Virus record (IMG/VR): IMGVR_UViG_3300030101_004515
Location: 1-57,865 of that record
DNA length: 57,865 nt
From: a virus
Taxonomy: Duplodnaviria; Caudoviricetes
Reading direction: 5' to 3' (one strand)
The number at the start of each line of letters is the position of its first letter. Position 1 is the stretch's first letter. Both the position numbers and the translations under genes were made by a program. Below, piece after piece: positions 3,031-57,865 of this stretch. Below the pieces are notes generated by a model. The model was given only the letters and a program-made list of their open reading frames with translations, searched no databases and was not told where the DNA came from.

Positions 3031-3705
3031 ATGTCGCACGAACGAAAGTTTGAATACTTAACTAATAATAGAATAGTTTATAGGCGTGACCCAGTATCTG
3101 ATAAACCAGATGAAGAAACACCACACTATAAGTTATATAATATTGGTACACACGAGTGTTATGAATTATTTAGAAGTAAAGCAAAGATTACGACGTTTAA
3201 ATCTTTGAAGTGGCATTTGCTTGTATTACTATATTTAAACGATCATCTTACTAAAACTATGTTTTTAAAATTAGGAAAGCACATAACGAACAAATCAAAT
3301 GGTTTTATTACATTCGTAATAGAAGAGAACAGGTTAGTAACAATAGTTGACGACGTATGGGCTCAGGATTTAGATAAACCGCCGAAGAATAGATTAAGAA
3401 AAATTATATTCAAAGACAACTGCGGTTTAAATAGAATTGAAAAGCTTAAGCTTGTAGGAAAAGTATTAGGTCGAGGAAAGAAAGCAAGCGAGAGTGATAT
3501 ATACGAAGCGATGCTATACATGCACGACGTCGGTAAAAAAATTACTGTAAGTTCATTAGCTACTCAACTACAAGTAACTACACGTACTATCTTCAGAAAC
3601 ATGAGTGATTCTTTAAAAGAAGAGAAACACCGAATGAACGATGAAACATTACAGCATACTAAACTACATACGTTACAAAGAAGAATTAACAGAAAGGTTA
3701 TTTGA
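3031..3705 (+). CDS. DNA-binding protein with C-terminal HTH (regulator or replication initiator)
   Basis: ITVSSLATQLQVTTRTIFRNM is a helix-turn-helix signature. Confidence 0.7.
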   Translation: MSHERKFEYLTNNRIVYRRDPVSDKPDEETPHYKLYNIGTHECYELFRSKAKITTFKSLKWHLLVLLYLNDHLTKTMFLKLGKHITNKSNGFITFVIEENRLVTIVDDVWAQDLDKPPKNRLRKIIFKDNCGLNRIEKLKLVGKVLGRGKKASESDIYEAMLYMHDVGKKITVSSLATQLQVTTRTIFRNMSDSLKEEKHRMNDETLQHTKLHTLQRRINRKVI

Positions 3706-4402
3706 AGAATGCTGCAACTCAGAAACATCACGAGAAGACTTAATACTATGCGCAAGACCTCTAGTAGAAGCAGTAGCATGGAAGTTTGTACTGACGTACC
3801 AAGCGTCGGGGGTGATGTCGATACTAGATCTAATACAGGAAGGTACAATAGGTTTGATAAACGCCGTAGACAGAATAGATTGGGACAAAGTTTATGGGAC
3901 AGCGAAACCGGGAGAAGAACCGCTTATGGTAAAAGGGTTCTTAAAAAAAAGAATAAAGGGTTCGATCAGAAGAGCGATAGACATAAACAGGGGAAGCATG
4001 AGAATACCGGAACACAGGTTAAACGAAATCAGAAAGAACAGCAGCAACAAAGAGATGGTAAAAGTTTTCTTCGACAGTATATTTGTAAGCTTAGACGTAA
4101 ACACTTCAACGGACAGCAATATATTACTACAAATACCCGACAGCTCAACCACATACAACATAAATATTCTCAATCAATATTTGATGGGACTGATGAGAAT
4201 GCACCTAACTCAACTAGAATACAACGTATTACGAATGAGTTATGGTTTAGATTGCGACAAACTCAGCGCAAAAGAAATATCAGAAAAGTTGGATATAAAA
4301 GGTTCAGCATCTTACGTAAGAGTATCACAAATAAAAAAAGACGGGATAGACAAGCTTATAAAAAACGTAGAGCCAGAACAAGTTGTAGATTATTTAGGAT
4401 AA
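3641..4402 (+). CDS. phage-encoded sigma70-family RNA polymerase sigma factor
   Basis: Region 2 DLIQEGTIGLINAVDRID and IRRAIDINRGSMRIPEH; region 4 EYNVLRMSYGL...SAKEISEKL...VRVSQIKKDGIDKL. Confidence 0.9.
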   Translation: MKHYSILNYIRYKEELTERLFEECCNSETSREDLILCARPLVEAVAWKFVLTYQASGVMSILDLIQEGTIGLINAVDRIDWDKVYGTAKPGEEPLMVKGFLKKRIKGSIRRAIDINRGSMRIPEHRLNEIRKNSSNKEMVKVFFDSIFVSLDVNTSTDSNILLQIPDSSTTYNINILNQYLMGLMRMHLTQLEYNVLRMSYGLDCDKLSAKEISEKLDIKGSASYVRVSQIKKDGIDKLIKNVEPEQVVDYLG

Positions 4403-4404
4403 CC

Positions 4405-4437
4405 CGAGCCAGACACGAGTAATCATTGATATATATA
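4405..4437 (+). promoter_or_regulatory. promoter-like motif copy 4 (CGAGCCAGACACG-N10-GATATATATA)
   Basis: Directly after the sigma gene stop and upstream of the recombination genes. Confidence 0.7.
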
Positions 4438-5694: not shown

Positions 5695-6015
5695 ATGGCA
5701 GGAATTTTAAAAGGAAACCTAGATGTTACCAAGATACCAAAGGATAAAATCTATAATGGTAAAAAGGGTAAATACATTCCCGTTGTTATTGCAATCAACA
5801 ACGAAGTGGATCAGTTTGGTCATAACGGTTCAGTAACCGTAGACCAATCAAAAGAAGAGCGCGACGCAAAAGAGCCTAAGGTTTATTTAGGAAACATAAA
5901 AGTCGTATGGACAGACGGTGAAGCAATGCCCGCTGCACAACAGCAGGGACAAGCTCAGCCATCTCCAGTTTCTCAAACGGCTGCTGCGCCGACAGATGAT
6001 GATCTTCCGTTCTAA
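5695..6015 (+). CDS. putative single-stranded DNA-binding protein
   Basis: Q/P/A-rich linker and acidic C-terminal DDDLPF tail; gene context. Confidence 0.7.
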   Translation: MAGILKGNLDVTKIPKDKIYNGKKGKYIPVVIAINNEVDQFGHNGSVTVDQSKEERDAKEPKVYLGNIKVVWTDGEAMPAAQQQGQAQPSPVSQTAAAPTDDDLPF

Positions 6016-6017
6016 TA

Positions 6018-6050
6018 CGAGATCAACACGAAGCAGCTATGATATAACAA
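6018..6050 (+). promoter_or_regulatory. promoter-like motif copy 5 (CGAGATCAACACG-N10-GATATAACAA)
   Basis: Intergenic, upstream of the primase-helicase. Confidence 0.65.
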
Positions 6051-6095
6051 TCGACAAACAATAATGTTAGTCATAATATTTATTTATTCATTTTT

Positions 6096-7820
6096 ATGTT
6101 CAATACGGTAGAGGTTAATGGTTTTTATGTGGATAAGTTCAACCAGTATAATCTACCGGTAGGTAAAGCGGAGAGTGTTTGTCCTCTCTGCTCTCACCTG
6201 CGTAAGCCAGAAAACAGAAAAAAGAAATGTGCAAGCTTAGACTGGGAAAGAGGTTTAGGTACTTGCCATAATTGCAATAAAACATTCCAGCTACATACTT
6301 ACCAAAGAAAAGGTGGTTCGGATATAGAATACAAAAGACCAGCTTACGATACAAAAACGCATAAGCCCGTGCAAAGCAAGGTTCTTAAATGGTTTGAATC
6401 GAGAGGTATATCTAAAAAAACAGTTGAGGATTTAAATATTTCAGAGGGACCAGAGTATATGCCGCAAACTGGAAAGGAAGAGAACACTATTAAGTTTAAT
6501 TATATGATAGGCGACCAGCTTATCAATATTAAATACAGAGACGCGAGAAAAAACTTTAAGCTTTACAAAGGTGCAGAAAAAATATTTTATAATATTAATA
6601 GTATTGTTGGTTACAATTCTTGTATTATAGTTGAAGGCGAAATGGATGTATGTGCTATACACGAAGCCGGTATTTCTAACGTAATATCAGTCCCAAACGG
6701 CGCCACACTAAACACAAACAACCTTGATTACTTAGATAATTGTATAGATTACTTTGCTGATAAAGAAAAAATTATAATAGCTGTTGATAATGATGCAGCT
6801 GGTATAGCCTTAAAACAAGAATTAATAAGAAGATTAGGCTCAGAGGTTTGTTATACTGTTGATTATGAAGAGCATAAAGATGCAAATGACGTATTGTTAG
6901 AAAGCCCTGAAAAGCTGAAATCAATTATCGATAAGGCTTTGCCTGTGCCTTTAGAAAACGTAACGACATTTAAAGACTTAGAAGATGATTTACAAGACTT
7001 TGTTAAAAACGGTTTTAAGCCGGGATTTCAGATTGGGATTAATAACTTTGATAATATCTTCAGCACTTACACTGGTCAGTTTATTACTGTTACTGGTATA
7101 CCTAGCAGCGGTAAAAGTGATTTCGTTGATCAAATGGTAATAGGCTATAATATAGGATATGATTGGAAAATAGGTTTTGCCTCTCCTGAAAACGCCCCCA
7201 CTTATTTACATGCTCATAAAATAATGCGTAAAATATGGGGCGGTATGCCTTCGCATAATGATATTGGTACTGAAAGATGGCAAGAAATATCAAATCATAT
7301 AAACAATAATTATTATTTTATAGATTTAGAAGTTCCATCACTTGAAGCAGTACTACGTAAGGGTGCCGAGCTTGTAAAGCGTAAAGGAATTAAGTGTTTA
7401 GTAATAGATCCTTTTAATAAAATAAGAGACACGAATGCTAATAGTATGGACGTAAACACATATACTTTAGAATATTTAACAAAAATAGAACAGTTTGCCA
7501 AACGTTATGATGTATTGGTAATTATAGTAGCGCATCCTACTAAAATGTATAAAGACAGTTCAGGTAAAATTGAAGAGCCTACAATGTATAACATAAAAGG
7601 AGGAGGCGAGTGGTATGACGCAAGCTATCACGGGCTGCTGGTACATAGAGATTATGAAAATAAAACAACAAAAGTTAAGGTATTAAAAGTAAAGTTTCAA
7701 AATTTAGGAGAAAACGGAGCTGAGTGTTTCTTTACGTGGGAACCGAAAAGTGGTTCTTATATACCATATATCAACGAAGAAGAAGAAGAAGTAGGGCCTT
7801 TACCGTGGGAAAATGGATAG
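6096..7820 (+). CDS. T7 gp4/Twinkle-like DNA primase-helicase
   Basis: Zn finger CPLC...CHNC, Toprim IVEGEMD and DND, Walker A GIPSSGKS, Walker B LVIDP, IVAHP motif. Confidence 0.95.
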   Translation: MFNTVEVNGFYVDKFNQYNLPVGKAESVCPLCSHLRKPENRKKKCASLDWERGLGTCHNCNKTFQLHTYQRKGGSDIEYKRPAYDTKTHKPVQSKVLKWFESRGISKKTVEDLNISEGPEYMPQTGKEENTIKFNYMIGDQLINIKYRDARKNFKLYKGAEKIFYNINSIVGYNSCIIVEGEMDVCAIHEAGISNVISVPNGATLNTNNLDYLDNCIDYFADKEKIIIAVDNDAAGIALKQELIRRLGSEVCYTVDYEEHKDANDVLLESPEKLKSIIDKALPVPLENVTTFKDLEDDLQDFVKNGFKPGFQIGINNFDNIFSTYTGQFITVTGIPSSGKSDFVDQMVIGYNIGYDWKIGFASPENAPTYLHAHKIMRKIWGGMPSHNDIGTERWQEISNHINNNYYFIDLEVPSLEAVLRKGAELVKRKGIKCLVIDPFNKIRDTNANSMDVNTYTLEYLTKIEQFAKRYDVLVIIVAHPTKMYKDSSGKIEEPTMYNIKGGGEWYDASYHGLLVHRDYENKTTKVKVLKVKFQNLGENGAECFFTWEPKSGSYIPYINEEEEEVGPLPWENG

Positions 7821-8265
7821 AGTAAGCAAGGAAACAAGGTCTAAGATTATGCGAAGCATAAAAGGCAAAGACACAAAGATTGAAGCGCGTCTTGCTAAAG
7901 CGCTGTGGCACAAAGGATTACGTTACCGTAAAAACAACAAGAAGATAAAAGGAAAACCTGATATTTGTTTTGCTAGTAAAAAGTTAGCTATATTTGTTGA
8001 TGGTGAGTTTTGGCACGGACACGAATGGGAAGAGAGAAAAAAGAAACTGAAGACGAACAGGGAGTTTTGGATTAGTAAGATAGAAAGAAACATGGAGAGA
8101 GATAAGGAAACAAACCAGCATCTTATAAATGAAGGCTGGTCGGTTATGAGGTTTTGGGGGAAAGATATAAACGAAAGGCTGGATCACTGCGTAGAAAAGA
8201 TTTGCGAAGCGCATGCCGGTATACATAATAAACAGACAATACAAATTCATGATGGGAAGTTATAG
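7813..8265 (+). CDS. vsr: very short patch repair (T:G mismatch) endonuclease
   Basis: MDxxSKETRSKIMRSIKGKDTKIE, GKPDI, FVDGEFWHGH, FWISKIERNMERD, GWSVMRFW are classic Vsr motifs. Confidence 0.9.
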   Translation: MDRVSKETRSKIMRSIKGKDTKIEARLAKALWHKGLRYRKNNKKIKGKPDICFASKKLAIFVDGEFWHGHEWEERKKKLKTNREFWISKIERNMERDKETNQHLINEGWSVMRFWGKDINERLDHCVEKICEAHAGIHNKQTIQIHDGKL

Positions 8266-8509
8266 CCCAACAAGACCAGAAATTAAAGCTAACGATTACT
8301 GTATTAGAAATAATATACGTATCTTTCCTGTGTGCGTACAGAATCACAAGCTTTGGAAGGTTGGCATAAACTTTGGCCCTTACAAAAAAGGCGAGAAACC
8401 TAACTTATCGCCAGACTCGTATGGACCGGGTGAAATACAAAAACAAATTTATAACGCAAGTGTTTATTACTATAATAAATACGGGGTTAATACGAAAGCA
8501 AAAGGATAA
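8213..8509 (+). CDS. hypothetical protein
   Basis: ORF track; true start may be ATG 8249. Confidence 0.6.
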   Translation: MPVYIINRQYKFMMGSYSPTRPEIKANDYCIRNNIRIFPVCVQNHKLWKVGINFGPYKKGEKPNLSPDSYGPGEIQKQIYNASVYYYNKYGVNTKAKG

Positions 8510-8516
8510 TAACAAT

Positions 8517-9320
8517 ATGATTTACGAAAAGAATTATAGAGCGCTTATAACAAGAATTGTTAAAGACGGAAACTATAGAGAAGACAGAACAGGCGTAGGA
8601 ACAAAATCTTTATTTCATCAAAGATTAAATGTTAATATAAGCGCAACAAAAAAATTAGGTCAAGAAAAAATAGAAGGCGATAACTTTCCAATTTTAAACG
8701 GAAAGCATATGAGTCAAAACATATTTGACACAGAGTTTGAGTGGTTTATGAACGGCGAAACAAATATTCAAAGATTTAAAGATAATAATGTAACCATATG
8801 GGACAACTGGGCGACACCTGAGGGCGATTTAGGCCCTGTTTATGGCTATCAACTAAGAAATTTTAATGGACAAGGAATTGATCAATTAAAACAATTAATA
8901 GACGGCATAAATAAAGATAGGCACGGAAGACGTCATATAATTAGTTTGTGGAACCCCGCGATGATACAAGATATGGCATTACCGCCTTGCTATTTATATT
9001 TCCAATTTTATATAAACCACGGAATGATAAGCATGTTTGTGGTTCAGAGATCCGGTGATATGTTTTTAGGTGTTCCATATGATGTTTGTTTGTTTGCTAA
9101 AATATTATTATATGTAGCTTCTGAAACAAATACAGTTCCAAAAAACATTGACATATCTATTATAGACGCGCATATATATTTAAATCATTTTGATGCAGTA
9201 AAAGAATATATGAACAACACGGATTATAAAGATGGGGCAAAGTTTACATATCAAAGCGGAAGGCTTACGTTAAAAAATTATAAGCCGGGACCAAAAATTA
9301 AAGCGCCGGTAGCAGTATGA
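8517..9320 (+). CDS. thyA: thymidylate synthase-family enzyme with dCMP-type specificity residue (candidate dCMP methylase)
   Basis: DRTGVGT, IWDNWA, GDLGPVYG, RR..SLWNP, ALPPC, QRSGDMFLGVPYD, DAHIYLNH, C-terminal KAPVAV; start at ATG 8517. Confidence 0.93.
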   Translation: MIYEKNYRALITRIVKDGNYREDRTGVGTKSLFHQRLNVNISATKKLGQEKIEGDNFPILNGKHMSQNIFDTEFEWFMNGETNIQRFKDNNVTIWDNWATPEGDLGPVYGYQLRNFNGQGIDQLKQLIDGINKDRHGRRHIISLWNPAMIQDMALPPCYLYFQFYINHGMISMFVVQRSGDMFLGVPYDVCLFAKILLYVASETNTVPKNIDISIIDAHIYLNHFDAVKEYMNNTDYKDGAKFTYQSGRLTLKNYKPGPKIKAPVAV

Positions 9321-10072
9321 AATATTACCTGTATCACATTCCCGGTAAAAAAATTGGCGTCACAACCAATGTACTGAAACGCGTAACTAAAGTACAAGGT
9401 TTTAAATCAGGCGAGTATGAGATTCTACTTAGCTCTGACGATATAAACTATATATCAGATAAAGAAAGAGAACTGCAAAAAAAGTTCGGATACAAGGTGG
9501 ACATAACACCATACAATCAATTACTTATGAGAAAAAAAGAAATGAAAATAAACGTTACAGAGCAGACCACTACGTTTCCTTGTCCTCGTGTTCATTTAGC
9601 AGACGCGCTATTAGAAAACGACGGGATGATTTGGGAAACAACTTTAGGTCAGTTTGAAAACACGGAGCTAACAAGAACGTGGATATTAGCTAATGCTAAA
9701 AAGTCTATGTTCAATAACGAAAAATGTTTTATATACAATAAAGCATACTATGAAGAATTTCTATTCCAAACCAACGGAAGAAATATCTTTGATAGAATAC
9801 GCGCGTGGGCAAAAGAAAGAAACATTTACACGCACGGTGATATTAAAACGCAGCTACTTAAACTTTACGAAGAGGCCGGCGAATTGTCTCAGGCTGTTTT
9901 AAAAGAAGACAAGCAGGAAACTGTAGACGCCATAGGCGATTGTGTTGTTGTTTTAACTAACTTATCTGAGCACTTAGGCGTTAATATAGAAGAATGTATT
10001 GAACACGCTTACGATCAGATTAAGGCAAGAAAAGGTAAAATGGTAAACGGAACATTTGTAAAAGATGAGTAA
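9317..10072 (+). CDS. fusion of GIY-YIG-like N-terminus and MazG-like nucleotide pyrophosphohydrolase
   Basis: N-terminal YYLYHIPGKKIGVTTNVLKR...ERELQ; C-terminal IRAWAKERN...KLYEEAGEL...DAIGDCVVVL. Confidence 0.8.
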   Translation: MKYYLYHIPGKKIGVTTNVLKRVTKVQGFKSGEYEILLSSDDINYISDKERELQKKFGYKVDITPYNQLLMRKKEMKINVTEQTTTFPCPRVHLADALLENDGMIWETTLGQFENTELTRTWILANAKKSMFNNEKCFIYNKAYYEEFLFQTNGRNIFDRIRAWAKERNIYTHGDIKTQLLKLYEEAGELSQAVLKEDKQETVDAIGDCVVVLTNLSEHLGVNIEECIEHAYDQIKARKGKMVNGTFVKDE

Positions 10073-10316
10073 AAAAGAATTTGATTTTAGAGACCCTATC
10101 ATACAAAAAGTTGTAGAAAAGTTTATATCAAGATCTGACGTAGGCTATAGCAAATATAAAGTAACGCTAGAACAAGACAGCAAATCTATTAACGAGTGGC
10201 TTAACAATATACAAGAAGAGCTAATGGATGCTGTAAACTATATTGAAAAGCTTAAATCTGTTTTGGCTGACGAGCTTCAAGAAGTTTTGCTTAAGAACTA
10301 TCATGAGAAAGATTAG
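10065..10316 (+). CDS. small all-alpha NTP pyrophosphatase-like protein
   Basis: RSDVGYSKY...WLNNIQEELMDAVNY (EExxD metal-binding helix). Confidence 0.6.
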   Translation: MSKKEFDFRDPIIQKVVEKFISRSDVGYSKYKVTLEQDSKSINEWLNNIQEELMDAVNYIEKLKSVLADELQEVLLKNYHEKD

Positions 10317-10785
10317 ACGCAGCAAGAAGCGCGGCCCCGTAGTATCAAAAAAAGTAACATATGACGGAATTAATTTTGCTTCAGGTTTAGAAAAATATAT
10401 GTATATTGCATTAAAGCAAAACGGTATAAAAGCTGTTTACGAAAACCGAACTTTTGTTTTAATTCCTGGATTTTACTTTGATAGCCAAAGCTATGAAAGA
10501 ACAGCGAACGCTAAGGGCGAATATAAGGATAGGGGTATGAAAAGTATTCAACCGATCAAGTATACGCCTGATTTTGAGGGAGAGGGATTTATAATAGAAT
10601 GTAAGGGTAGAGCTAACGAAACGTTTTCTATGCGGTGGAAATTGTTTAAAAAACACATAACAGAACAACTTCCGGGTATTGTACTTTACAAGCCCCAAAA
10701 CCAAAAAGAATGCGACAAAACAGTGGAGCTAATATTAGAGTCTCAAAAGCGATTGCGAGACAAAAATATAGAGAAAGACAAATAA
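10303..10785 (+). CDS. PD-(D/E)XK endonuclease, T7 endonuclease I/resolvase-like
   Basis: FASGLE...YE...YTPDF...IIECKG; start at ATG 10303. Confidence 0.8.
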   Translation: MRKIRRSKKRGPVVSKKVTYDGINFASGLEKYMYIALKQNGIKAVYENRTFVLIPGFYFDSQSYERTANAKGEYKDRGMKSIQPIKYTPDFEGEGFIIECKGRANETFSMRWKLFKKHITEQLPGIVLYKPQNQKECDKTVELILESQKRLRDKNIEKDK

Positions 10786-10883
10786 ATAAGTACGTTAACT
10801 GGGCGATAGAGAGCAGGGGATATTTAAAATGGAAAGAGATTGAGGCTATTCACGATAAGTATAACGTAAAAGTATATGGCTAG
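10710..10883 (+). CDS. hypothetical protein (57 aa)
   Basis: Manual ORF MRQNSGANIR...KYNVKVYG that fills the gap. Confidence 0.45.
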   Translation: MRQNSGANIRVSKAIARQKYRERQINKYVNWAIESRGYLKWKEIEAIHDKYNVKVYG

Positions 10884-11013
10884 AAGAAACATTACATACA
10901 CATATATAGAGCGACCTAAAAAAAGAAGGCCGGGCGTTCACGCTAAAACAAAAACCAGCGGGCTGAAGTCTAGCAAGTATTACAAGAAAAAATATAGGGG
11001 GCAGGGAAGATGA
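10876..11013 (+). CDS. small basic protein ending YRGQGR (45 aa)
   Basis: Manual ORF MARRNITY...KKKYRGQGR; this ending recurs in phage basic peptides. Confidence 0.6.
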   Translation: MARRNITYTYIERPKKRRPGVHAKTKTSGLKSSKYYKKKYRGQGR

Positions 11014-11165
11014 CAATTAAAAAGAACAACGTACATTGGGAGATTCATATAGGCTATTATCCGGGCATACTGTTTGGGATTAGAAGTTACAAAATGAAAG
11101 GATACGATGATCACGTGTTATATTTGCCTCTTGTAGATTTTTGTTTAACCATATATAAAAAGTAA
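11010..11165 (+). CDS. small hypothetical protein (51 aa)
   Basis: Manual ORF with ATGA coupling, MTIKKNNVHWEIHIGYYPGILFGIRSY... Confidence 0.55.
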   Translation: MTIKKNNVHWEIHIGYYPGILFGIRSYKMKGYDDHVLYLPLVDFCLTIYKK

Positions 11166-11166
11166 C

Positions 11167-11619
11167 ATGGAATTAACCCAAATTAAAAACATTCTAATAG
11201 ATTTATTTGACAATGATTTTAGTAAGCCAAATAGGCAAAGGCACAATGTATATCAGCGCGCGGTTTATTTCAGGCTATGCCGAGATCTTACACCTTATGC
11301 CCTAACAGATATTGGCGCAGTAATTAATAAGGACCACGCCTCCGTACTCCATGGGCTAAAACTGTTTAAAAACTTTAAGATTTGGGGAGAGGATATATAT
11401 CTTTCGATTTATAAGCAGGCTAGACTAAAGCTAAAGCAAAAGTATGGGTTTGCTAACCCGCACGCAAACATGACAGTTGAAGAGAGATACAGGGAACTTC
11501 TTATGCACCATATAATTCTAAAAGAAAAATATCACAAAACAAAGAAAGAGTTAGAAAAAATTCGTAATTTTAATGTATCTGATTTTCAAACAGTTAGTAA
11601 TGGGATATACAATAGATGA
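11167..11619 (+). CDS. DnaA C-terminal (domain IV) HTH-like protein
   Basis: RQRHNVYQRAVYFRLCRDLTPYALTDIGAVINKDHASVLHG resembles DnaA R..R..AM.L..ELT..SL..IG..F..RDHTTV.H. Confidence 0.8.
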   Translation: MELTQIKNILIDLFDNDFSKPNRQRHNVYQRAVYFRLCRDLTPYALTDIGAVINKDHASVLHGLKLFKNFKIWGEDIYLSIYKQARLKLKQKYGFANPHANMTVEERYRELLMHHIILKEKYHKTKKELEKIRNFNVSDFQTVSNGIYNR

Positions 11620-11830
11620 TATAGAAAAGATAGCGGCTTTTAAGTCTTGGTCAAAAAAAAGAAAGATCGATACACTTCTTGAAATAGACGCGGATTTATA
11701 TTGTAACTTAGGGATGGAGTCAAGCAGAAGCGAAGTAGAAGCCATTAAAGTGCAGTCAAGAAAAATATACAGGCTTATAAAAACAATAGACGAATACGAT
11801 GGTAAAATGCTATTAAGAAACGAACGATGA
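11600..11830 (+). CDS. hypothetical protein
   Basis: ORF track 11573..11830; likely start ATG 11600. Confidence 0.65.
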   Translation: MGYTIDDIEKIAAFKSWSKKRKIDTLLEIDADLYCNLGMESSRSEVEAIKVQSRKIYRLIKTIDEYDGKMLLRNER

Positions 11831-12018
11831 AGTTTATTGACTACGTTATGTGTTTTTTTATTATATTGTTGTTTATAACAGTGGCTTCATGCAGTAAGGA
11901 AGAGGATAGGTGTGCACAGTATGACTTACAAGATGAGGAACTTTTAAATGAGTGTGTTGATGGTGTTTGCACACAGATTGTTCAGGTGACAACAACATGT
12001 ATAACTTATGAACAATGA
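11827..12018 (+). CDS. small lipoprotein
   Basis: Hydrophobic signal, VASC lipobox, then SKEED. Confidence 0.7.
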   Translation: MKFIDYVMCFFIILLFITVASCSKEEDRCAQYDLQDEELLNECVDGVCTQIVQVTTTCITYEQ

Positions 12019-12581
12019 TTTATATAAAAGATAATTTTTTACCGTTAAATCTTTATAACCAATTAATTAGCTTTTGTGATAAATTTACAGAGATCAAATA
12101 TCCCGATAAATCTTTTTGGGTTAAAGAATTACCTAAAGAGTTTGAATATTATATGATCAGTGAATTAGAAAAATTAGAAAATAAAAAAATAAATAATATA
12201 TTAGCTTTTGCAAGAGAAGCTAAGCAAAATCAAGATAACGATTGGCGCATACATAATGACACTATAATTGAAGGGCAACAACCTGATAGAGCTGTCGTAT
12301 TGTTTGTAAAAGCAAAAGAGGATAAATTAAACGGAACAGCTTTTTGGGAGCATAAAGAGTATGGGCATACGTATATTAAATCAGATAACGAAGAGTTTAA
12401 TCGTATGCTATTAGAAGACGCAAATGATGAATCAAAATGGAAATTAAATTCTGTAATAGGGTATAAGGACAACAGATTACTGTCTTACCCGTGTAATTAT
12501 TTCCATAGTAAATATCCTAATGAATACATGGACCAAAGAATAGTAGTGGTAATGTTTTATAAAATAGATGAAAGAGAGTAA
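12015..12581 (+). CDS. 2OG-Fe(II) oxygenase-superfamily protein
   Basis: IKDNFL start, HxD (IHND), GTAFW, NRLLSY...FHS facial-triad pattern, terminal R..V.F. Confidence 0.8.
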   Translation: MIYIKDNFLPLNLYNQLISFCDKFTEIKYPDKSFWVKELPKEFEYYMISELEKLENKKINNILAFAREAKQNQDNDWRIHNDTIIEGQQPDRAVVLFVKAKEDKLNGTAFWEHKEYGHTYIKSDNEEFNRMLLEDANDESKWKLNSVIGYKDNRLLSYPCNYFHSKYPNEYMDQRIVVVMFYKIDERE

Positions 12582-42317: not shown

Positions 42318-42589
42318 TACTTAGATTTTTTTTCTGCAAAGCCCGAAAACGAGTTCTCTTTTGCTTGCACCGGCTTGTTTTCAAGCAAGCTCTTTTCGGT
42401 TTCAATTCTGTTAAGAATCTCGAAAGCGTCGAATATTGCAAGCTTCTTTGTAGCGGCCGCGTTCTTTAATCTATCAGCGGAAACGTCGTCTTCTGTTTGC
42501 ACTATAGCCTCTTTGGCGACCTTTACTAACTCGTCAACGGCTCTATAGCCAGCTTGGATTATACTCTCTTTCTTTTTCTTTATATCCAT
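42317..42589 (-). CDS. putative terminase small subunit
   Basis: Small helical ORF coupled directly upstream of the large subunit. Confidence 0.5.
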   Translation of the reverse strand: MDIKKKKESIIQAGYRAVDELVKVAKEAIVQTEDDVSADRLKNAAATKKLAIFDAFEILNRIETEKSLLENKPVQAKENSFSGFAEKKSK

Positions 42590-43130
42590 AACGTATAGAT
42601 ATTTCGTTGTTAATTACCCTGTACAGCCTTTCGCCTTCTATAATAAACTCGTATTCGCTGTCCGGAGTAAAGCCTATTTTTTCATTTACCTTAAAATCAC
42701 CAGTATCGTCTACGTACTTAATAATTCCTATCAATGACATCTCCTTGCTTGTTGAAAACTCATTATCGTTGACCAGCGGTTTTACGAAACTGAACCCGCG
42801 ATTCGCCTTCCATACGCCATCGCGCTTGTAAAGAAATATTTGCTCAAGCTCGCAGAAGTACAGATTATCTTTGAAATAACTTTTACTATTGCGCTCAATG
42901 CCTCTAACGTCATGCCAACGACGAAATATATTATGATGCACATAAAGAACATCACCTCTGTTAATATGTGTATCACGTGCTATAGGTGTTTCGTAAACTA
43001 TTGCTTCACGACTTACAAACTTGTGATCGGATATATCGGTGTTTAATATCAGCTCCTTGTCTCCGACCTTTTTAGTATTGTCGTATCTTTCTTTTTTAGG
43101 TTTGATTAAAAAGGAATATATCGGTTTCAT
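42543..43130 (-). CDS. GroES-like protein (apparently two tandem GroES-like units)
   Basis: MKPIYSFLIKP...ELIL...AIV..TP...GDVLYV, then FVKP...GIIKY...EKIGF...EFIIEGERLYRV. Confidence 0.5.
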   Translation of the reverse strand: MKPIYSFLIKPKKERYDNTKKVGDKELILNTDISDHKFVSREAIVYETPIARDTHINRGDVLYVHHNIFRRWHDVRGIERNSKSYFKDNLYFCELEQIFLYKRDGVWKANRGFSFVKPLVNDNEFSTSKEMSLIGIIKYVDDTGDFKVNEKIGFTPDSEYEFIIEGERLYRVINNEISIRYGYKEKEREYNPSWL

Positions 43131-56739: not shown

Positions 56740-56997
56740 TTAACCGACTAACACAACATCTTGTTGTCTTATAACTTGGTATAAGTTATTGTCGTATTCT
56801 ATTCCGTGTCCCGCTCTCCTGTCGTAATAAATTATGTCATTTTCCTTGACTCCTTCTGTCATATTGCCTACAGATACAATTTTCGCCTTTAAGTACCTAA
56901 CGTCATCTACGTGTTGGTCCATTATAAGTAAACCCTCTTCTTTCTTAGGTTCTTCTTTGATCGGCTCAATTATAATAAAGTTATTGATTGCCTTCAT
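56740..56997 (-). CDS. groES: co-chaperonin GroES
   Basis: MKAINNFIIIEP...GLLI...AKIVSVG...VKENDIIYY...VIRQQDVV; adjacent to groEL. Confidence 0.85.
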   Translation of the reverse strand: MKAINNFIIIEPIKEEPKKEEGLLIMDQHVDDVRYLKAKIVSVGNMTEGVKENDIIYYDRRAGHGIEYDNNLYQVIRQQDVVLVG

Positions 56998-57865
56998 AAT
57001 CTCTTACATTTGAAATTATACAATCTGCAGATATAATTGTTGTAGCCACGCTAACTGCATTTACCAATGCTTTCTTAGTTACCATTACCGGATCTATAAT
57101 ACCGGCCTTTATCATATTTACCTCTTTTCCCGTTATAACATTTATACCGTGTCCTTTTTTACGTGTGTCATTAAAGTCTATGGGATTTACGGTATTATGT
57201 TCTATTCCGGCGTTTTTTAATATCGTACTATAAGGAGATTCAACCGCTTTTAATAATATTAGCTCGGCTTCGGTATCCATCTTTACTTTTTGACTTGCGT
57301 CTAATAAAGCTATTCCTCCACCCGGCACTATGCCTTCTTTAATTGCGGCTTTAACCGCATAGATAGCGTCTTCAACTCTATCCTTTTTTTCTTTTAACTC
57401 GATTTTACTATTTGCGCCAACTTTCAGTATTGCTACAGCGCCAGATAACATGGCCAGTCTTTGTTCGAGCTTGGATTTTATAAACGGGTTTTTCTCCGTT
57501 TTAATTTTTTTATTTACTAGGTCTATTCTTTCTTTTGCTTCATCTGGCATTTTATCTATAGTAATTACCGTTGATGTTGCATCTGTTACTGCTTTTTCAG
57601 CTTGACCTAAAACATCGGGATTGATTAAATCTAAATCGTCTCCCAATTCTTCATTGATAACTTTCGCTCCGGTTATTGTGGCTAGATCCTGCATCGTATC
57701 CATTTTGGTAGCCCCAAAACCAGGTGTATCAATAATGTTCACTTTAATGTTACCTTTTACCTTGTTCATTAAAAGTGCAGCCATCGGTTGCTGATCCATG
57801 CCGGCCACAATCAAAAGACTGCGCTTTTCCCTGATAACATGCTCAAGTACACTTTGTATTTTTCT
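56981..57865 (-). CDS. groEL: chaperonin GroEL (5' truncated by the window edge)
   Basis: PGFG, LEQRLAMLSGAVAILKVGA, ELKEKKDRVEDA, EGIVPGGG, GIIDP..VTK.AL.NAVSVA; frame stays open to the window end. Confidence 0.95.
   Translation of the reverse strand, partial: RKIQSVLEHVIREKRSLLIVAGMDQQPMAALLMNKVKGNIKVNIIDTPGFGATKMDTMQDLATITGAKVINEELGDDLDLINPDVLGQAEKAVTDATSTVITIDKMPDEAKERIDLVNKKIKTEKNPFIKSKLEQRLAMLSGAVAILKVGANSKIELKEKKDRVEDAIYAVKAAIKEGIVPGGGIALLDASQKVKMDTEAELILLKAVESPYSTILKNAGIEHNTVNPIDFNDTRKKGHGINVITGKEVNMIKAGIIDPVMVTKKALVNAVSVATTIISADCIISNVRDYEGNQ

Follow-up and report, generated by a model that had tools for sequence, protein, structure and literature searches.

A gene of the thymidylate synthase (TS) or ThyA superfamily lies on the plus strand of the IMG/VR virus record IMGVR_UViG_3300030101_004515, a whole record of 57,865 bp with a completeness estimate of 91%, which is referred to below as the window. 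It is followed by a gene for a fusion protein with a MazG-type domain and preceded by a small open reading frame (ORF), a gene for a Vsr-type T:G mismatch endonuclease and a primase-helicase gene (Table 1). The profile PF00303 (Thymidylat_synt) spans the full ThyA-family protein (E 1e-70, residues 5–267 on profile positions 1–266 of 266), which is the sole TS homolog in the record. Its translation contains ALPPCY, QRSGDMFLGVPYD, IWDNWA, DAHIYLNH and a C-terminal KIKAPVAV. The earlier note on this DNA, made from the sequence alone, had described the protein as a classic ThyA apart from two specificity residues, and this description is borne out, with IWDNWA, DAHIYLNH and the KAPVAV tail all present and PF00303 matched over its full length. 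The two residues suggest that the substrate is deoxycytidine monophosphate (dCMP) and not deoxyuridine monophosphate (dUMP), the protein probably being a 5-methyl-dCMP synthase.

Table 1. Features of the window and of related loci (positions refer to the window unless a locus is named before the colon)
Feature	Position	Strand	Remarks
ThyA-superfamily gene, predicted 5-methyl-dCMP synthase (dCMP methyltransferase)	8517..9320	+	267 amino acids; PF00303, alignments
Leu155 codon TTA	8979..8981	+	E. coli Leu143 equivalent; hydrophobic, versus acidic in hydroxymethylases
Catalytic Cys158 codon TGC	8988..8990	+	E. coli Cys146 equivalent; alignment column invariant
Tyr159 codon TAT	8991..8993	+	At E. 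coli His147 position
Asp189 codon GAT	9081..9083	+	At E. coli Asn177 position, pyrimidine specificity
Fusion protein, 251 amino acids	9317..10072	+	ATG overlaps TS stop (ATGA 9317–9320); residues 1–64 GIY-YIG/T5orf172-like, 73–150 fold without match, 154–251 MazG-type nucleoside triphosphate pyrophosphatase
Small ORF between primase-helicase and TS, 98 amino acids	8213..8509	+	tblastn match in 25/27 loci
Vsr-type T:G mismatch endonuclease, intact	7813..8265	+	PF03852 E 1e-31; TIGR00632 161.5 bits
Primase-helicase	6096..7820	+	Conserved upstream anchor; only classical Walker A protein in window
Early and replication genes	1 to ~12.6 kb	+	Include PDDEXK exonuclease and DUF1064 resolvase-like protein
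Structural genes, terminase, portal, GroES-/GroEL-like chaperonins, lysis genes		−	
T4 gp42-like homologs in TS slot	L055:4485–5144; L061:2252–2899; L085:4252–4896		
Leu143/His147/Asp177 homologs without Trp83	L056:999–1835; L073:1056–1898		

Positions were assigned with HMMER alignments to solved thymidylate synthases and a MAFFT alignment with E. coli K-12 ThyA, and residue numbers 80, 83, 143, 147, 168, 169 and 177 follow E. coli ThyA numbering. In alignments with E. coli ThyA, the TS of phage Xp12 and T4 gp42, the residues E58, W80, Y94, R126, C146, R166, S167, D169, H207 and Y209 were all found to be conserved. Trp80 and Trp83, Val93-Tyr94 and the C-terminal tail, which is of the KAPVAI type, are likewise retained in the window protein. 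Position 177 is occupied by Asp, as in T4 gp42, versus Asn in ThyA, and the residue after the catalytic Cys is Tyr where E. coli ThyA has His147; the earlier note had pointed to these two codons, and both residues and their coordinates proved right in the translation and the alignments.

Both residues are widely conserved. Leu at 143, Tyr after the Cys and Asp177 are kept in 27/27 related viral loci, at TS identities of 49–97%, while the codons vary synonymously (TAT in 26 and TAC in one; GAT in 22 and GAC in five). In a motif scan of the protein and its 120 best homologs, Cys-Tyr was found in 119/121 and Asp in 119/121, the rest being one Cys-His and three scan misses, and Asn was seen in none. 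Both codons are also covered without difference by contigs of the marine runs X4 (record 2) and X5 (records 12 and 13), which come from another study, and no variant was detected at either codon in four runs, which were compared as assembled contigs.

Several published rules link residues of the TS fold to substrate and product. With Asp in place of Asn177, the enzyme takes dCMP as its substrate instead of dUMP (PMC8670742; PMC13326640). Hydroxymethylases of the T4 gp42 type are described as having Asp or Glu at the Leu143 position of TS, three residues ahead of the catalytic Cys, and Ser or Thr two residues ahead of a conserved Tyr; Trp83 is replaced by a small residue, and the C-terminal tail is missing (PMC6400193). 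Together these features admit and activate water in place of hydride transfer (PMC6400193; restated in PMC13326640). Leu143 versus Asp or Glu at this position separates methyl from hydroxymethyl products, and 5-hydroxy-dCMP synthases are marked by D169N (PMC13326640). A precedent for the methyl product is phage Xp12, in which all cytosine is replaced by 5-methylcytosine and the 5-methyl-dCMP (5mdCMP) is reported to be made by a TS homolog (10.1101/2024.12.05.627091).

When the window protein was compared with these rules, the T4 hydroxymethylase signature was found to be absent, as the protein has Leu155, Pro-Val-Tyr (versus Ser-Asn-Tyr in T4) and a tail. Its QRSGD motif keeps Asp169, versus the Asn of the RB69 gp48/DLP3 gp80 type, and a 5-hydroxy-dCMP synthase is therefore not expected. 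Of the marks of a canonical ThyA, the C-terminal tail is present while Asn177 and His147 are replaced by Asp and Tyr; the marks of a dCMP methyltransferase of the Xp12 type, namely Asp177, a non-acidic residue 143 and Asp169, are all there. Among the twelve residues listed as lying within 6 Å of C5 (PMC13326640), three differ from E. coli ThyA in an alignment read by eye (H147Y, C168G and N177D), with Ala occurring in other TS at the site of the Cys168 to Gly change. Since all published product rules agree, reductive dCMP methylation, with 5-methyl-dCMP and dihydrofolate as products, is the predicted reaction. It is therefore considered probable, at roughly seven in ten, that the ORF encodes a folate-dependent dCMP C5-methyltransferase (5-methyl-dCMP synthase) of TS fold.

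This agrees with the natural dCMP methylase that the earlier note had proposed, and every sequence-level test of product class (Asp177, Leu143, Asp169, Trp80/83 and the tail) points the same way. Its expectation that such a gene would be mis-annotated as thyA also held, as JGI names the relatives 'thymidylate synthase' and the protein, at 201.7 bits, lies well above the 108.35 cut-off of the NCBIfam model TIGR03284. The note had further treated it as known that replacing His147 favors dCMP. A 1997 Biochemistry paper reportedly deals with L. casei H199/N229D, but the claim itself could not be confirmed, and a literature search for that work returned no relevant paper.

To place the protein within its family, an exhaustive search of 1.84 billion representatives was made, and the 150 best matches, the query and three references were aligned (154 rows). 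His147 with Asn177 was found in 119 rows, E. coli included, and these are all the Asn177 rows. Asp177 was combined with Tyr147 in 12 rows, including the query, with His in 11, with Pro in six, including Xp12, with Val in one and with Thr in one, namely T4 gp42; four rows were other or truncated. Tyr147 thus occurs in 13/154 rows, 12 with Asp177 and one truncated, and never with Asn177. Positions 177 and 147 are also those reported in the MetaGPA study of 2021 as best separating the TS of cytosine-modified and unmodified contigs (PMC8670742). A FastTree phylogeny of 114 rows, 40 having been left out for length or gaps, placed the query in an 18-row group with a support of 90, in which 16 of the 18 rows have Asp177. 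As 13/111 branches were starred and Xp12 and T4 sit on long branches, support in this tree is weak and no conclusion was drawn on the number of Asp177 origins.

The protein encoded directly downstream may provide the partner activity. Its C-terminal domain scored above the cut-offs of two MazG/PRA-PH profiles (PF01503, 27.1 bits; PF03819, 25.4 bits) and matched a MazG-like PHROG. Structure models of the protein were obtained with a predicted local distance difference test score (pLDDT) of 86 and 91, and residues 154–251 gave VIA Z scores of 9.4–9.7 to MazG structures, with 9.5 to the MazG of cyanophage S-2L (7ody); Foldseek also listed mouse dCTPase (E 0.027). MazG-type pyrophosphatases are all-alpha proteins with a four-helix fold and an acidic EExxE...D motif, and the domain agrees with this, as EE.GEL and DAIGD do not vary among 23 sequences of the fusion protein. 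By analogy with S-2L MazG and T4 gp56, the pyrophosphatase is suspected to act on deoxycytidine triphosphate (dCTP). A phmmer search of the fusion protein against the PDB gave nothing better than E 0.13, and residues 73–150 had no convincing match in Foldseek or VIA. The N-terminal part shows weak resemblance to GIY-YIG nucleases, the best VIA rows being I-TevI (Z 5.4), UvrC (Z 4.5) and T4 EndoII (Z 3.9), with a T5orf172 match under the cut-off (E 0.015) and no significant Foldseek match for the N-terminal 150 residues; a Tyr, Arg22 and Glu50 are invariant, and the second motif reads KIG. It should also be noted that this part recalls T4 EndoII, an enzyme that attacks cytosine-containing DNA, with structural support at Z 3.9–5.4 being weak. 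PRA-PH has been listed among the top domains co-localized with deaminases adjoining such TS genes (10.1101/2024.12.05.627091).

The arrangement of these genes is conserved. A protein of 247–309 amino acids is encoded directly downstream of the TS gene in 27/27 close loci, the primase-helicase lies upstream in 26/27, and the small ORF, which has no Pfam, PHROG or NCBIfam match, stands between them in 25/27. The MazG fusion occurs widely, in no fewer than 581 IMG/VR loci. Of the 80 that resemble it most, 76 carry a TS homolog directly upstream, two have too little upstream sequence and two have none; these being the best-scoring loci, the proportions of types among them are not population frequencies. 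Asp177 was found in 75 of the 76 upstream homologs, with one scan miss, and Asn in none. Three types were distinguished: type A, that of the window, with Leu143, Tyr147, Asp177 and the TS tail (four loci); type B, with Leu143, His147 and Asp177, without Trp83 and with a modified tail (44 loci); and type C, short proteins of approximately 215–255 amino acids with the T4 hydroxymethylase signature (28 loci). In a motif scan this signature, namely Asp three before the Cys, Thr after the Cys, Ser-Asn-Tyr and no tail, was present in 26/28, and the three type C rows in the alignment show every one of its features. Because the slot is shared with hydroxymethylase types, always has Asp177 and keeps the same pyrophosphatase, the most plausible reading of the TS-MazG pair is a cassette that modifies DNA precursors.

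A 4.1-kb contig in which the TS and the MazG fusion form a single 519-residue ORF (L030:686–2245) was considered as a real TS-MazG fusion and set aside; the tail is missing from its TS part and ~25 residues from the start of its partner, so that it is probably a deletion variant or an assembly artefact. No TS-MazG fusion was seen in the 120 longer proteins listed out of 142, among which DHFR-TS and other fusions occur.

In the proposed mechanism, Cys158 would attack C6 of dCMP while Asp189, at position 177, would pair with N3 and N4 of the cytosine and shut out dUMP. The one-carbon unit of methylene-tetrahydrofolate would then be transferred, and a hydride from tetrahydrofolate would reduce the intermediate to give 5-methyl-dCMP and dihydrofolate, with Leu155, Trp80/Trp83 and the KAPVAV tail sealing the active site against water. 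The translationally coupled MazG-type pyrophosphatase downstream is expected to convert dCTP to dCMP, which would both remove the competitor and feed the methylase. Host kinases could raise 5-methyl-dCMP to 5-methyl-dCTP. With primers from the phage primase-helicase, the replicase of the host would then put 5-methylcytosine into the phage DNA as a protection against restriction.

Several observations weigh against this scheme and should be set beside it. The thymidylate-kinase family (PF02223) gave no match in the window or in nine near-complete relatives, which represent types A, B and C. Both in the window and in its colinear relative G001, the primase-helicase has the sole classical Walker A motif, and G029, a complete type C genome, has no obvious P-loop nucleoside monophosphate kinase. 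The step to the triphosphate, for which no kinase was found, is the main gap; in phage Xp12, by comparison, a 5-methyl-dCMP kinase of the phage itself is induced. The step may fall to kinases of the host, or a kinase may go unrecognized among the conserved ORFs. As neither the window nor the lineage yielded a DNA polymerase of family A or B and no dihydrofolate reductase (DHFR) was detected in the window, several steps must come from the host. The structural matches of the MazG domain are modest for a helical domain. The transfer of function from Xp12, the closest characterized Asp177 methylase, rests on the signature residues, because the two proteins share 28% identity over 183 residues and the Xp12 enzyme is without the tail and has Pro147. 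Published work on the class is favorable in most cases, the Xp12 TS and five of seven metagenomic Asp177 homologs having made 5-methyldeoxycytidine (5mdC) in E. coli, in assays that co-expressed T4 gp1; two of the seven predicted methylases yielded none (10.1101/2024.12.05.627091).

The earlier note had offered as an alternative that 5-methyl-dCMP is deaminated to deoxythymidine monophosphate (dTMP). Deamination of the monophosphate or of the triphosphate, the latter to dTTP, would give a dUMP-independent thymidylate route supplying thymidine to an AT-rich phage. Such a route is published at the triphosphate level for Xp12-like phages, whose TS-adjacent deaminases turn 5mdCTP into dTTP (10.1101/2024.12.05.627091), and it would suit the AT-rich window (GC content 0.34–0.39); the hydroxymethylase-type genome G029 also gave a weak match to the Xp12 deaminase. 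However, the window and five relatives that are 99–100% complete gave no match to the dCMP deaminase family (PF00383), and a tblastn search with the Xp12 deaminase gave no match in 40 TS loci, which weighs against the dTMP route in the window phage, as a host deaminase would be needed. Moreover, the slot is also occupied by hydroxymethylase types, whose product cannot become dTMP. The route is thus unsupported here and appears unlikely.

A dCMP enzyme with another C5 product, either 5-hydroxymethyl-dCMP as for T4 gp42 or 5-hydroxy-dCMP as for RB69 gp48, is quite unlikely. Asp177 is common to these classes and the methylases, and rules drawn from few enzymes may fail in a new clade. Nevertheless, the Leu three before the Cys, the lack of Ser/Thr-x-Tyr, and the presence of Trp83, the tail and Asp169 all speak for 5-methyl-dCMP, and the slot is filled in relatives by a distinct type that is plainly like T4.

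It could also be argued that the protein is a working thymidylate synthase, converting dUMP to dTMP, which tolerates Asp177 and Tyr147, or that it uses both substrates. It is the only TS homolog in the record, its identity to E. coli ThyA (37%) is higher than that of the Xp12 TS (30%), and ten of the twelve residues listed around C5 are conserved, with Cys168 to Gly as a third difference. Against this, mutagenesis as cited in later papers has the Asn to Asp change switching the preference to dCMP, the Asp is strictly conserved over 49–97% identity, Tyr147 never accompanies Asn177, and the link to the MazG module is shared with hydroxymethylase types, so that this reading is held to be very unlikely. 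The last alternative, that the gene is an ordinary thyA in which GAT or TAT arose by a mistake of sequencing or assembly, with GAT standing for AAT as the earlier note had allowed for, is refuted by the independent X4 and X5 contigs, which agree at both codons, and by the same residues in 27/27 related loci and 119/121 database proteins, and can be regarded as virtually excluded.

The Vsr gene upstream of the cassette sits on a 392-bp insertion (7822–8213) that replaces 17 bp of the closest relative, L005, and is found only in the window strain; both junctions are bridged by X4 and X5 contigs. The nearest named relatives of the protein are the chromosomal Vsr of Flavobacterium and Chryseobacterium (60–62% identity), and the gene appears to be a recent, strain-specific capture from a host. 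A role as a part of the module was considered and rejected, as Vsr was detected in 0/40 TS loci and in 0/29 whole records including Xp12, and a TS gene was found near 0/3 viral Vsr relatives. Vsr repairs the product of 5-methylcytosine deamination. Its position beside a predicted dCMP methylase is therefore suggestive, a functional link and coincidence not being distinguishable; it could be a host-derived repair of deaminated 5-methylcytosine or merely a mobile gene. Further downstream, an ORF of 188 amino acids (12015–12581), which matches DUF6445 weakly and shows an HxD...H pattern, is probably a 2-oxoglutarate- and Fe(II)-dependent oxygenase. It was examined as a TS-linked oxidase of 5-methylcytosine, a role that found no support, as the ORF is accessory, being present in only 3/27 loci and in a contig without TS, and absent from G001.

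A broader picture may be put forward tentatively. It is possible, though less than an even chance, that a compact, host-reliant cytosine-replacement cassette is common in marine podophages of the Flavobacteriia type, made up of the GIY-YIG-like/unmatched/MazG protein and an exchangeable C5-pyrimidine synthase. Host enzymes would carry the modified dCMP into DNA, or a kinase would be hidden in the conserved ORFs (the middle domain of the fusion, or the 98-residue ORF), and in the window strain the captured Vsr would repair the T:G mismatches arising from 5-methylcytosine deamination in a genome methylated throughout.

With regard to the lineage, the window stretch was found in marine metagenomes of several studies. 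By its terminase, the nearest phage is MW202828, an uncultured metagenome podovirus (61% identity), followed by the cultured Flavobacterium Elemovirus (44%) and by Cellulophaga, Tenacibaculum and Maribacter phages (44% and below). As these terminase neighbors are phages of Flavobacteriia, the host is probably a marine member of that class. No TS homolog was found in MW202828 or the Flavobacterium Elemovirus, a megablast of positions 6000–12000 against cultured phages gave no match, and no cultured close relative was present in the phage collection searched. The best TS matches among cultured phages reach at most 39% identity, and those of Triscuit gp67, RHph_X3_15, Pseudomonas Y10 and BF695P3 are all ordinary His147/Asn177 proteins. 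It may be mentioned that Microbacterium phage Triscuit has two adjacent 'thymidylate synthase' genes near MazG-like and deoxycytidylate deaminase genes; beside the canonical gp67, its gp66 (L166:1593–2501) is divergent, with a Cys-Thr motif and a position 177 missed by the motif scan.

The colinear relative G001 (99% complete) extends approximately 4.5 kb beyond the ends of the window, and this region holds only the N-terminus of GroEL and ORFs shorter than 125 amino acids. A search for a C5 DNA methyltransferase gave no match. In the window itself the GroEL-like chaperonin gene (56981–57814, minus strand) is cut by the contig end, and there are two GroES-like genes, also on the minus strand (56740–56997 and 42543–43130). 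Such chaperonin cargo is unusual for a podovirus of ~60 kb and common to the Elemovirus relatives. The phage also encodes a sigma-70 family factor (3641–4402, plus strand) with regions 2 and 4, for which TIGR02937 scores barely above the cut-off; a Lys/Arg-rich ORF in an alternative frame (3709–4422) overlaps it and is probably not a gene.

If the prediction is correct, the gene is a further case in which an enzyme that modifies cytosine receives the label 'thymidylate synthase' from standard pipelines, and a 5-methylcytosine pathway is to be placed in an abundant, uncultured group of marine phages whose relatives are podoviruses of Flavobacterium and Cellulophaga. Methylation of phage DNA has consequences for restriction, for predicting the host range and for how well some library preparations recover these genomes. 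The combination of one partner gene with interchangeable methyl and hydroxymethyl synthases offers a natural matched set for comparing hydride transfer with hydration, and it raises the question of how modified dCMP becomes a triphosphate where neither a phage kinase nor a phage polymerase was detected.

The finding is not new in kind, because enzymes of this class, the reasoning from their residues and the route by deamination are all in the literature, and the core claim will not surprise specialists; what is added is how the cassette is built, that methyl and hydroxymethyl types replace one another in it, and that no kinase was found. The 2021 and 2024 work may already include an assayed member of the Tyr147 clade itself. 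The sequences indicate a clade distinct from Xp12. The Xp12 TS shares the ThyA fold, Asp177 and a residue other than His at 147, its product 5mdCMP having been assayed where that of the window enzyme is predicted. It differs in having Pro147, Phe83, Asn at 143 and no tail of the KAPVAI type, and deaminase and DHFR genes adjoin the Xp12 gene, neither of which was found in the window phage. The metagenomic Asp177 homologs of the MetaGPA and 2024 studies are similar in their 177/147 logic, their origin from viral metagenomes, their PRA-PH/MazG neighbors and their annotation as TS. Asp177 served as the filter for mining IMG/VR, and the homologs assayed in 2024 were selected for an adjacent dCMP-deaminase gene, such as was not found in the window (10.1101/2024.12.05.627091).

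E. coli ThyA has in common with the window protein the full catalytic set, Leu143, Trp80/83 and the C-terminal tail, whereas the wild-type E. coli and L. casei enzymes are dUMP-specific. Their Asn to Asp mutants (E. coli N177D and L. casei N229D), which shift to dCMP methylation as cited in PMC8670742 and PMC13326640, carry the same Asp switch, which in the window is natural and accompanied by Tyr147 and Gly168. T4 gp42, at 24% identity to E. coli ThyA, shares the Asp at the specificity position, and its dCMP substrate and role in DNA modification are those predicted for the window protein; it differs in that Asp145 precedes the Cys by three residues, Trp83 is replaced by Val, Ser94-x-Tyr96 is present and the tail is lacking, none of which is seen in the window protein. 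For the partner gene, the closest parallels are S-2L MazG and T4 gp56, phage pyrophosphatases coupled to base replacement, a coupling that is inferred here. T4 gp56 belongs to another fold, so that the MazG fold is shared with S-2L only, and in contrast to both, the window MazG domain, with its predicted specificity for dCTP, is joined in one protein to two further domains, one GIY-YIG-like and one of unmatched fold.

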